UHGV virus genome: UHGV-2091278 | Length of the DNA: 17,075 bases | Source of the DNA: a virus | Reading direction: 5' to 3' (one strand) | Shown: piece after piece, positions 15,173-17,075 of the stretch | Layout of the letters: each line of letters begins with the position of its first letter | Numbering within the stretch: position 1 is the first letter of the stretch | Program-made: the position numbers and the translations under genes | The notes under the pieces: model-generated | The model's input: only the letters and a program-made list of their open reading frames with translations | What the model was told of the DNA's origin: nothing | Databases searched by the model: none

Positions 15173-16036
15173 TTAATCACCTATGTGATTACGTTCTATA
15201 TATCTTACAATCTTCTCTAAAGATTCAACCCCCCACCTCTGCATAGCATGCGGGGATTCTGTATATTCATAATCTTCTATGGTGAGATCCCATGTACTTT
15301 TCTTGAATTCACACTGATATAATCGCACAGTCTTGTTTAAAACCAACCCTTCTAACACACTGCTTTTCTTAATGATTTTGTCAATGTCTTTATTGTTAAT
15401 CCCAATGTAGATAGCTGTTACCGAACTTAAATCAGTTATCTTGTCAATTAAAATATTTTCTTGCTTTTGTAATAGCCCCACTCGCTTTATTATTCTAACT
15501 TCTTCTTCATATTTCCAATGCAATGATTTAGTAAGCAATAATTTACTAATTACATCAGCGCTATAAATGTTTTCTTGACTGATTTTTAGTTTGCTTTTTA
15601 TTCGACTCTCTAAATAATTAATGTCACCTTTCTGTGCCGTAATTAGGCATTTTTCTTCATCATCAAACCCTGCCCTTTCTGTGTCAATTGCTACAACAAA
15701 CCCCTGATGTTTATCAGCATAATGTGACCACATCAGTACATTGAGAGGATTTTTAGAAAGGCATAAGCAGGCAACATTTTGATTGATCTCCCCCCTCATA
15801 GCTAATGGTTCAAGCGATTCACCATCTAATGAAAGTTCATAGCCATAGCTTTCAAAAGGATCATTAAACTCACTATATGGAGTGAATTTTATAGAGATGT
15901 AACCATCTTTAAAAAATCGTTCCAATGATGTCTTATCTATATATTTATACAGAATCATAATATATTCAGAATTAATTATAGGTGTTATCAGTATACAGTA
16001 CTTCAACAAGTAGATGTAAAGATCCCATTTAAACAT
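15173..16036 (-). CDS. DUF2971-family-like protein of unknown function; A+T-rich cargo gene inserted between D and ogr
   Basis: 287 aa; ...ILYKYIDKTSLERFF.DGYI..KFTPYSEFNDPFES... and ...LMWSHYADKHQGFVVAID... resemble the conserved N-terminal motifs I associate with DUF2971. Strong SD GAGGAGGA directly before ATG 16036; visibly low GC. Confidence 0.6.
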   Translation of the reverse strand: MFKWDLYIYLLKYCILITPIINSEYIMILYKYIDKTSLERFFKDGYISIKFTPYSEFNDPFESYGYELSLDGESLEPLAMRGEINQNVACLCLSKNPLNVLMWSHYADKHQGFVVAIDTERAGFDDEEKCLITAQKGDINYLESRIKSKLKISQENIYSADVISKLLLTKSLHWKYEEEVRIIKRVGLLQKQENILIDKITDLSSVTAIYIGINNKDIDKIIKKSSVLEGLVLNKTVRLYQCEFKKSTWDLTIEDYEYTESPHAMQRWGVESLEKIVRYIERNHIGD

Positions 16037-16153
16037 TCCTCCTCAATACGCGGATTAAACAAATTAAAGCATCTTACTCAAAATGGACCATCAGTTGGAT
16101 TTAGAGCCAACACAACCTAGAATAGCGGCAGCACCACGTTAAGGGAGGTCGCT

Positions 16154-16414
16154 ATGTTCCGTTGTCCGCTTTGTGGCGCATCTGCCCGTATCCGCACCAG
16201 TCGTCCGGAAAATGATTCAAACACCGTGCGACAAAAGTATTACCAGTGCAACAACCTGGAATGCGGCGTATGCTTCTCAACACTGGAAGCTTTCCATAAA
16301 TTCACATCGAAGCACGCCTCCGGCGTTCACTCTTCAGAAGGTATCCCGTGGCATGAGCTGCCAGCTTCGCACAGGGGAAACAATCAGATGAGTTTGCCTT
16401 TACCTCAGAATTAA
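16154..16414 (+). CDS. ogr: Ogr/Delta-family zinc-finger late transcription activator
   Basis: MFRCPLCGASARIRTSR...QKYYQCNNLECGVCFSTLE... matches P2 Ogr (MFHCPLCQHAAHARTSR...ERYHQCQNVNCSATF) with a Cys-x2-Cys...Cys-x4-Cys arrangement; SD AAGGGAGG upstream. Confidence 0.8.
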   Translation: MFRCPLCGASARIRTSRPENDSNTVRQKYYQCNNLECGVCFSTLEAFHKFTSKHASGVHSSEGIPWHELPASHRGNNQMSLPLPQN

Positions 16415-16423
16415 CAGGCAGAA

Positions 16424-16452
16424 TTGCCGGAGTAACAAAAAAGCGATAGATT
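16424..16452 (+). promoter_or_regulatory. Putative sigma70-like promoter for the hok-like transcript
   Basis: TTGCCG - 17 bp - TAGATT, about 150 nt upstream of the hok-like ATG; weak match, by eye only. Confidence 0.25.
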
Positions 16453-16474
16453 ACGCGCGGGTGCCTTTCGGCTG

Positions 16475-16738
16475 ATGGTCGGAGGGAATACCCGAAGGCC
16501 AGATGTGGAAAGGCCCCGGAAAACATCTCTGTTTAACCGAGGCCCTAACCGCATTACCTTGACAAGTGAAAGGTTAGCGCCTCTCCGGAAAAGGAGCAAG
16601 TGCTATGTCGCAAAAATCGCTTACGGCCATCACGTTCTGCGTGACGGCAATCCTCATCATCTGGATGCTGCACGGTTCGCTGTGCGAAATACGGATGAGC
16701 TTCTGGGGAGCGGAGTTTGCGGCGTTCTTACAGTGTAA
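16475..16738 (+). CDS. mok-like overlapping reading frame (possible translational coupling ORF for the hok-like toxin)
   Basis: 87-codon ORF in a different frame that starts upstream of and overlaps almost all of the hok-like ORF, as mok does in hok/sok loci. Confidence 0.3.
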   Translation: MVGGNTRRPDVERPRKTSLFNRGPNRITLTSERLAPLRKRSKCYVAKIAYGHHVLRDGNPHHLDAARFAVRNTDELLGSGVCGVLTV

Positions 16739-16745
16739 GCAGTAA
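16605..16745 (+). CDS. Hok/Gef-family type I toxin (small membrane peptide)
   Basis: 46-aa ORF MSQKSLTAITFCVTAILIIWMLHGSLCEIRMSFWGAEFAAFLQCKQ, too short for the ORF track. Hydrophobic TM segment then SLCEIR...E.AAF, the Hok signature (Hok: ...RKSLCEIRYRDGHREVAAF...). SD AAGGAG 8 nt upstream. Confidence 0.7.
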   Translation: MSQKSLTAITFCVTAILIIWMLHGSLCEIRMSFWGAEFAAFLQCKQ

Positions 16746-16834
16746 GGAAACCGCGACGGGGGAGCAATCCCCCGTCAATCGGTTGCCAGGGTAAGGTCGA
16801 TAAGGCACCCTATCTCACAGACATGAACAACAAA

Positions 16835-16866
16835 CCCGCAGCGTAAAAACTGCGGGTTTTCTTTTT
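16835..16866 (+). terminator. Rho-independent terminator downstream of the hok-like gene
   Basis: Stem CCCGCAG / CTGCGGG with 8-nt loop followed by TTTTCTTTTT. Confidence 0.65.
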
Positions 16867-17011
16867 GGTGCCCTCACCGACTTGAAACAGTGATCAGACT
16901 ATAAGACAAAGCCCACAATGTAGCGGGCTTACTCCCCTCTCCCTCCACCGAATGTGGACACATAGTGGAACAAAGAGAGATAAAATATTATAAATCAATC
17001 GGTTATTGAAA

Positions 17012-17039
17012 GAAAAAAGGCCGCAGAGCGGCCTTTTTA
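17012..17039. terminator. Bidirectional intrinsic terminator
   Basis: A-run, stem GGCCGC / GCGGCC with AGAG loop, then TTTTT. Confidence 0.55.
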
Positions 17040-17050
17040 GTTAGATCAGA

Positions 17051-17075
17051 TTACTCGTCTTTGGGCGAAGCGTTT
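17051..17075 (-). CDS. Extreme 3' end of an unidentified minus-strand gene continuing beyond the window
   Basis: Minus-strand frame ...NASPKDE followed by TAA (plus-strand TTA at 17051-17053) and then the 17012-17039 terminator; only 8 codons visible. Confidence 0.25.

Follow-up and report, generated by a model that had tools for sequence, protein, structure and literature searches.

A probable hok/sok-type toxin-antitoxin cassette between ogr and the right end of a P88-like prophage

The closest described systems to the locus analyzed here are hok/sok of plasmid R1, hokW-sokW of the Shiga toxin (Stx) 2 prophage Sp5 and HokA of Escherichia coli K-12. The R1 hok mRNA is described as switching between a closed and an open architecture, and translation of mok up to the hok Shine-Dalgarno (SD) sequence is mandatory in that system (PMC9841398). 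Experiments have established hokW-sokW as a type I toxin-antitoxin (TA) system (PMC8621323). Published precedents for such loci include abortive infection and help with phage release, and plasmid maintenance is the established role of those borne by plasmids (PMC8621323). According to a recent survey of Hok peptides, hok genes are enriched four-fold in prophages, and Mok, Sok and the mRNA elements were deliberately placed outside its scope (bioRxiv 10.1101/2025.08.07.668861). Here we describe a 17,075-nucleotide stretch of viral DNA, UHGV-2091278 (hereafter the window), in which the roughly 445 bp at positions 16424-16866 very probably constitute a complete and portable type I TA cassette of the hok/sok type, made up of a toxin gene, its regulatory mRNA and a Sok-like antisense RNA (Table 1).

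The open reading frame (ORF) at 16605-16745 on the plus strand encodes the peptide MSQKSLTAITFCVTAILIIWMLHGSLCEIRMSFWGAEFAAFLQCKQ. This peptide passes the curated threshold of Pfam HOK_GEF (PF01848) with 29.9 bits against a gathering score of 22 (E 4e-7), its residues 7-44 being aligned to positions 5-42 of the 42-position profile, and it matches PHROG 251, 'MokW-like host killing', at E 1.3e-22. The resemblance lies far beyond chance and, as judged from its sequence, the 46-aa product is a member of the Hok/Gef family, as the preliminary description of this DNA had claimed. None of the PADLOC models matched the peptide. It shares with R1 Hok the plan of a small transmembrane toxin and a SLCEIR...E.AAF core (39% identity over 31 residues); R1 Hok, however, has 52 aa, and a C-terminal Cys (C44) in the window's peptide replaces the Tyr of R1 AYESGK. 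In a BLASTP alignment to R1 Hok, residues M1, C12, T14, L26, C27, E28 and E37 fall on R1 M1, C16, T18, L30, C31, E32 and E41, which are the seven residues given as conserved in more than 80% of the surveyed peptides (bioRxiv 10.1101/2025.08.07.668861). The same residues are invariant or nearly so across six diverse members of the subfamily, which retain 16 invariant residues at only 48-74% identity, and the hok ORF is intact in all 13 copies of the cassette that were compared (46 codons in 12 of them, 47 in the remaining one).

The gene had been put forward as unannotated, which is true only of the ORF track used for that description. The RefSeq protein WP_000078916.1, 'Hok/Gef family protein', spans exactly the same ORF; E. 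coli chromosomes such as NZ_CP029328.1 match the region at 100% identity, and there RefSeq gives the gene order ogr, Hok/Gef, ihfA; and gp52 of phage P88 is the same gene, labelled 'MokW-like host killing'. The cassette (~430 bp) is present in 1,757 of 5,426 complete E. coli genomes, at up to 9 places per genome, and all listed E. coli genome records with the cassette annotate it as Hok/Gef. An identical 46-aa peptide appears as sequence 72_1621 of Hok cluster 72 in Table S2 of the constructs tested by Escalera-Maurer et al.; cluster 72 is a high-abundance cluster, 72_1621 was cloned for arabinose-induced toxicity assays, and the preprint reports only 19_179, 60_1482 and 69_1540 as non-toxic, 72_1621 not being among them (bioRxiv 10.1101/2025.08.07.668861). 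The toxicity of the peptide is taken from this preprint. Because it is annotated, catalogued and reported toxic, and because prophage-borne hok/sok loci are documented, the cassette is an ordinary, already known element. Relative to the survey of cluster 72, the peptide is the same, and the RNA anatomy and the non-conserved mok presented below are additions rather than contradictions. Literature searches on hok in P2-like accessory or defence hotspots found nothing specific. Little is at stake by way of discovery, and the modest scientific interest of the locus lies in the mok point alone. The value for annotation is that a short toxin gene, an antisense RNA and a regulatory RNA of ~350 nt are easily overlooked in an ORF track; the hok/sok cassette accounts for the 'empty' 450 bp that follow ogr up to the end of the prophage.

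Mobile elements of several kinds carry the cassette as one conserved unit. Our scan of genome contigs contributed only 6 loci, and the diversity came mainly from E. coli copies at 68-95% identity. Copies at 68-96% identity occupy several contexts: P2-like prophages, where they follow ogr (the window, L002 and L004); lambdoid and Stx prophages, where they follow lom or gpJ (L003, L008 and L009); and islands resembling integrative and conjugative elements (ICE-like islands; L005-L007), where they follow a type-B L31 gene. Further copies are found in Salmonella and E. albertii (L014, L015 and L017). Across these unrelated contexts (after ogr, lom, gpJ or L31-B) the homology starts exactly at the -35 element (ATTGCC or ATTGCG, window position 16423), and it stops after GGCACCC (16810) or after the terminator. 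The hok promoter has 8 of 12 consensus matches, its -10 hexamer is kept as TAnATT or TACAGT across the contexts, and G16459 is the predicted +1 of the hok mRNA. A consensus promoter scan with a threshold of 9/12 reported no sigma-70 site over 16050-17075; as both promoters of the cassette lie below that threshold, they were identified instead by homology and conservation. The terminator stem runs into TTTTCTTTTT, which extends to 16866 (terminator scan; inverted repeat I3), and it is kept in the copies of P2-like prophages and ICE-like islands and missing in the lom-linked copies, which read into the next gene. Between the hok stop codon and this terminator lies a GC-rich hairpin (helix 17 of the consensus structure below) that is 99.1% paired among the copies, with compensatory changes at 4 pairs; it would be the 3' end and the exonuclease block of the processed, active mRNA, on the model of the 3' stem-loop of R1 Tr-hok (PMC9841398). 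The preliminary description had listed a weak promoter some 150 nt upstream of the gene, a perfect hairpin at 16755-16776 and a strong terminator. All three are in the sequence, and the promoter (TTGCCG-17-TAGATT) is conserved in every genomic context of the cassette.

The prophage in question is P88-like (Xuanwuvirus, Peduoviridae; P2 family) and integrated beside ihfA. Its ogr gene (16154-16414; Pfam Ogr_Delta, 52 bits) lies upstream of the cassette, and prophage-free genomes match the window from 17009 onward only, which makes the cassette the last unit before the right prophage end. We are accordingly confident, though short of certain, that it represents the last functional unit (moron) of the prophage, located between ogr and the junction at ~17009. 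What was found agrees with the earlier reading of a hok/sok-like layout at the edge of the prophage: promoter, 3' hairpin and terminator are present, as is a predicted fold-back of the two mRNA ends.

The 5' end of the hok mRNA was set by homology to the 5' ends of hokW and plasmid hok (GGGTGCTTGAGG and GGCGCTTGAGG, respectively) and by the start of an Rfam match discussed below. The predicted full-length RNA folds with a minimum free energy (MFE) of -178.4 kcal/mol (z = -7.6 against shuffles) and with its ends closed: the first nucleotides, GGGUGCCUU (16459-67), are a perfect 9-nt complement of 16802-10, so that long-range pairing between tac at the 5' end and fbi, an element shortly before the terminator, proposed earlier as a 5'/3' fold-back, is found in the sequence, in the closed MFE fold and in the consensus of 12 copies. 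In that RNAalifold consensus of 12 distinct copies there are 98 pairs, 17 of them with compensatory changes, and 95.5% of cells are paired in the closed fold; sliding the partners by 1-3 columns leaves 2-9 two-sided pairs instead of 17, and 0 of 500 shuffles reach the observed values. The closed fold is conserved and supported by covariation. Its tac/fbi helices 1 and 2 are 97.6-100% paired in the 12 copies, with one-sided changes and one two-sided change, and the partners are re-registered in L005-L007 and L017. Helix 7, between the Sok-target loop and the 3' segment, has 10 pairs, 3 with compensatory changes. The AUG is paired with codons 38-41, and the anti-SD helix 10 is 89.6% paired, the probability of GGAG being unpaired in the full-length RNA amounting to ~0.00-0.03. 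The MFE folds of all 12 full-length RNAs pair nt 3 with the 3' element and GAGG with ucb (nt 58-59 in the 11 copies with a full-length leader and the corresponding nt 42 in the shorter leader of L017). Conservation is higher in the untranslated leader (16459-16520) than in the hok codons, a signature of selection on the RNA.

A second, mutually exclusive fold appears possible in every copy. The stretches 16460-69 and 16508-17 are 10-nt complements, and this alternative helix of the 5' end with ucb is 98% paired; together with the target hairpin it makes up an open fold that is 97.2% paired in all copies, where most positions are invariant or changed on one side and there is little covariation. 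The target hairpin, which coincides with inverted repeat I1 (92% complementary), has 97% of cells paired over the 12 copies with only G-U wobble changes, and its variable loop, 16551-71, is the predicted recognition site of Sok. When the RNA was trimmed in silico to the post-stop hairpin, 7 of the 12 copies, the window included, switched to pairing of the 5' end with ucb and of GAGG with dcb, and the mean accessibility of the target loop rose from 0.31 to 0.46. The R1 hok mRNA is described with such a closed/open switch, and its mok-SD (GAGG)/dcb hairpin is homologous to the target hairpin of the window (PMC9841398); the tac-fbi fold-back, a possible alternative tac-ucb pairing, the GAGG/dcb hairpin, the post-stop hairpin and the terminator are shared between the two RNAs.

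Evidence for the antitoxin comes from the opposite strand of the leader. An antisense promoter on the minus strand around 16480-16600, suggested earlier as something to look for, was found as TTGCTC-17-TAACCT; its -10 is identical in 12 of 12 copies and its -35 keeps TTG, a 1-nt insertion shifting the -35 in one copy. The plasmid hok/sok reference (L010) has TTGCGC-17-TATCCT at the same position and with the same spacing, R1 has TTGnnC-17-TAnCCT in the same place, and the hokW/sokW locus has the identical TAACCT at the homologous position. In sokW, -10 substitutions in a 'promoter-less' mutant abolished the antitoxin activity (PMC8621323), and from the sequence of the mutagenic primer YO-421, as we read it, the altered hexamer appears to be TAACCT. 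The RNA predicted from the window folds at -24.1 kcal/mol (z = -3.5); those from 12 subfamily copies are predicted at 57-62 nt, each with a 5' tail and a hairpin (dG -21 to -30), and they share one antisense architecture with the plasmid Sok reference, the R1 antisense RNA being likewise a tail plus hairpin of ~60 nt. Two variants of the hairpin, differing on both arms, occur among the copies. At the level of sequence, the locus would encode in cis an antisense RNA that has its own promoter and is complementary to the leader.

Within a leader that is otherwise nearly invariant, variation is greatest in the Sok-target loop (16551-16571) and the Sok 5' tail that matches it (L002-L017). This distribution suggests that the antisense specificity has diversified to avoid cross-talk among the up to 9 copies per genome.

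Table 1. Positions in the window of the hok/sok-type cassette, its predicted RNAs and their pairing elements
Feature	Positions	Strand	Details
hok promoter	16424..16452	+	-35 TTGCCG (16424-29), 17-nt spacer, -10 TAGATT (16447-52)
Predicted full-length hok mRNA	16459..16866	+	408 nt; 5' end GGGUGCC to terminator T-run
tac-like 5' element	16459..16473	+	pairs with fbi-like 16795-16810 or ucb-like 16508-17
'mok-like' frame overlapping hok	16475..16738	+	87 codons; judged incidental, outside the system
ucb-like box GAAAGGCCCC	16508..16517	+	closed form pairs with GAGGCC (16539-44); open form pairs with the 5' end
Antisense-target hairpin	16539..16583	+	arms GAGGCCCTAACC (16539-50) and GGTTAGCGCCTC (16572-83, dcb-like)
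Predicted Sok-like antisense RNA	~16563 to ~16505	-	~59 nt; 13-nt single-stranded 5' tail, GC-rich hairpin, CCUUUCC
Sok-like promoter	16571..16599	-	-35 TTGCTC (complement of 16594-99), 17-nt spacer, -10 TAACCT (complement of 16571-76)
hok SD AAGGAG	16591..16596	+	8 nt before ATG
hok coding sequence	16605-16745	+	46 aa plus stop; Pfam PF01848, PHROG 251, RefSeq
Post-stop GC-rich hairpin	16755..16776	+	perfect 9-bp stem, 16755-63/16768-76
3' inhibitory segment	16779..16810	+	16779-91 pairs with the Sok-target loop 16557-69; fbi-like 16795-16810 pairs with the 5' end
Intrinsic terminator of hok mRNA	16832..16866	+	10-bp stem 16832-41/16850-59, 8-nt loop, T-run
Consensus helix tac/fbi	16459-73 with 16795-16810		
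Consensus helix 5, ucb/GAGG	16512-18 with 16538-44		
Consensus helix Sok-target loop/3' segment	16557-69 with 16779-91		
Consensus helix 10, anti-SD CUCC/GGAG	16583-86 with 16593-96		
Consensus helix AUGUCGCAA with UUGCGGCGU	16605-13 with 16717-25		

The mok question is where the locus departs from R1 and hokW. A second frame overlapping hok had been compared to mok in the preliminary description; the 87-aa frame 16475-16738 exists, but a mok role cannot be upheld for it since the frame is not conserved. It has no match in Pfam or NCBIfam; its ATG is absent in L005-L007; indels or stops close it in L002, L003, L006-L009, L013 and L014; and it is broken in phage P88 and in a Salmonella copy, both 93-96% identical to the window. 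Most likely the frame is open by accident in the window copy. As alternative mok candidates we considered ATG16503/GTG16505 and every upstream ATG, GTG or TTG in the 13 copies, and rejected them for inconsistent lengths and frames and because an upstream ORF extends to the hok SD in only 5 of these copies. ATG16503/GTG16505 is conserved and has a GAAGG SD, and the ORFs it opens range from 8 to 78 codons with inconsistent ends; this conservation is better explained by the overlap with ucb. The present locus lies on a prophage and R1 hok/sok on a plasmid. In the 46-aa subfamily, translation finds no start codon 8-9 nt after GAGG: every copy lacks ATG, GTG and TTG at a distance of 5-13 nt from GAGG, and an in-frame TAG (within GGTTAGCGCC) precedes hok.

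The IncFII plasmid hok (L010) and hokW of Sp5 (L011) have an upstream ATG in frame with hok, 8-9 nt after GAGG (+112/+113), which opens a frame through the hok start and gives read-through products of 71 and 70 aa. In these two loci the mok leader would add an N-terminal extension to Hok instead of yielding a product in another frame, and a frame running through the hok start fits the requirement of R1 for mok translation up to the hok SD (PMC9841398). In hokW the in-frame upstream ATG lies at +113 and the 70-aa product is of the Mok type; there is none here. Given a subfamily with no conserved mok leader ORF, translation of Hok probably begins directly at its own AAGGAG-N8-AUG site. Tentatively, and with rather less than even confidence, we suggest that cluster 72 may be a naturally mok-less hok/sok, in which ucb, GAGG and dcb would act purely as an RNA switch, Hok would be made from its own SD, and Sok would act through duplex-triggered decay or refolding rather than by blocking a leader ORF. 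Should the mok-less reading be true, up to nine copies in one genome would be insulated from each other by the variable target loop and the 5' tail of Sok. With all RNA elements of the R1 switch retained and no conserved mok, this abundant subfamily could serve as a natural test of whether the leader-ORF coupling is dispensable.

We propose, as the best reading of these data, that the cassette is a standard hok/sok locus: the sequence and structure elements are those listed above, and a silent mRNA, its 3' processing, antisense capture and toxin release would follow as in R1 and hokW/sokW. By that analogy, a weak constitutive promoter would supply a stable, translationally silent full-length hok mRNA, from which slow 3' trimming to the hairpin at 16755-76 would remove the inhibitory 3' segment; the trimmed leader would then refold with its target loop exposed, and the unstable Sok-like RNA would bind this loop and trigger decay. 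Were Sok synthesis to stop, either through loss of the element or through shut-off of transcription by infection or induction, Hok would be translated, insert into the inner membrane and depolarize or kill the cell.

Several results weigh against the standard hok/sok reading. First, the full-length match of the leader (16459-16618, plus strand, E 1.7e-9) to Rfam RF01794, 'sok antitoxin (CssrC)', scores 48.4 bits against a gathering threshold of 59 and lies on the hok-sense strand. The RF01794 consensus starts with GGGUGCUUGA..., like the 5' ends of the hok and hokW mRNAs, and ends at an AUG, so that what is matched is the sense leader and not the antisense strand; the model itself seems to describe a hok leader rather than an antisense RNA. 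Second, the NCBIfam Hok models score far below their cut-offs (34 vs 89 and 21.6 vs 73), and the peptide is not assignable to HokA-E. The best of them is HokA (NF007290, E 2e-8), and identity to a HokA-type sequence is 38% from end to end, with the MxQK N-terminus and the AAFLxC C-terminus in common, yet the equivalog cut-off is the one missed at 34 vs 89 bits; matches this weak indicate that the window's peptide belongs to a separate subfamily and is not a HokA orthologue. Third, the terminator tail of the Sok-like RNA (CCUUUCC) is poor. Fourth, the subfamily lacks a conserved mok leader ORF from the target region to the hok SD, and direct unmasking of the hok SD after truncation, which was also considered, is not supported by the modelling: the mean probability of being unpaired goes from only 0.03 to 0.11 for the SD and from 0.22 to 0.24 for the AUG. 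Fifth, the ends of the hok mRNA, its 3' processing and the Sok-like RNA are predictions. Finally, the role in a P2-like prophage has to be argued from other systems, and stabilization of the prophage, abortion of superinfection and help with lysis on induction are all compatible with the anatomy.

The alternative that survives best accepts the same cassette and assigns it another benefit: it would have been selected as a helper of lysis and release and not for addiction or defence, Sok disappearing on induction and Hok then permeabilizing the membrane. The hokW-sokW locus raises the release of Sp5 about 2-fold after mitomycin C (PMC8621323), Stx and lambdoid phages have copies of the present subfamily (~80% nucleotide identity) behind lom or gpJ, and the four-fold prophage enrichment of hok genes (bioRxiv 10.1101/2025.08.07.668861) points the same way. 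This basis, however, seems to lie outside the P2-like phages. HokW is only 31% identical to the window's peptide (51 vs 46 aa) and its locus has the mok-type in-frame leader that is lacking here, even though both loci are prophage-borne and share the Sok -10 TAACCT and a similar 5' end (GGGTGC...). hokW also occupies a different site in a lambdoid genome, and in Stx phages the relatives of the window's cassette form a distinct gene, of 46 aa, downstream of lom. Stabilization and abortive infection fit the anatomy equally well, and R1 hok/sok is reported to reduce T4 plating (PMC8621323). We therefore consider an exclusive release function rather unlikely.

It is considerably less probable that the cassette is a decaying, translationally dead relic, which has lost mok, never makes Hok from its native mRNA and persists only as a passenger of mobile elements. 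The chromosome of E. coli K-12 has several hok loci that are regarded as inactive in this manner. No copy has a start codon in the target hairpin, the place of the mok ATG in R1 and hokW, an upstream ORF reaching the hok SD is missing in 8 of the 13 copies (in the other 5 the start codons and frames differ), and the hok SD is paired in both modelled conformations. Decay is nevertheless hard to reconcile with a hok ORF intact in 13 copies, with 16 residues invariant among six diverse peptides at 48-74% identity and with a well-formed AAGGAG-N8-ATG. At least 4 kinds of mobile element and three species conserve the promoters, the tac, ucb, dcb and fbi elements and the hairpins, compensatory changes included, which indicates ongoing selection on the whole regulatory RNA, and the peptide is reported toxic (bioRxiv 10.1101/2025.08.07.668861). 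One might also take the ORF for a frame open by chance in the 3' untranslated and terminator region of ogr, with the hairpins as ogr terminators, given that it is very short and lies directly downstream of ogr with no terminator between. This reading is refuted by the Pfam pass, the annotated E. coli copies and the copies without ogr in lambdoid prophages and ICE-like islands, so that it keeps only a negligible probability.

Three of the 6 loci from the scan of genome contigs lie on contigs labelled as non-enterobacterial: L012 (a metagenome-assembled genome of Planococcaceae), L013 (Vagococcus sp.) and L016 (Xanthomonas pisi) carry enterobacterial hok cassettes whose peptides are 98% (L012 and L013) and 72% (L016) identical to that of the window. 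Contamination or mislabelled assemblies, not a true host range, are the most likely explanation of these labels. A further P2-like prophage, beside raiA in E. coli CFSAN018748 (L004, 2057-3005), has a hok cassette followed by a Com-family regulator, a DNA methyltransferase and the prophage end, a gene order which indicates that the region after ogr/hok is a variable cargo site.

The ~140 bp that lead from the hok terminator to the chromosome junction at ~17009 are prophage-specific DNA (16867-17008) and include a further terminator-like hairpin on the minus strand at 16909-16930. On the chromosomal side, 16953-17075 of the minus strand gives a sub-threshold, 5'-truncated match to the small RNA STnc540 (33 vs 38 bits), and this match overlaps the hairpin downstream of ihfA. 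On the other side of ogr, the minus strand at 15173-16036 encodes a DUF2971 protein of 287 aa (Pfam 44 bits; phrog_1762) that matches the PADLOC candidate defence family PDC-S31 at E 4e-27; phage P88 has no gene annotated in the corresponding interval. Its gene sits between a gpD-like tail gene and ogr, in an island of 30-37% GC with flanks of ~54%, and looks like an AT-rich defence moron adjoining the hok cassette.

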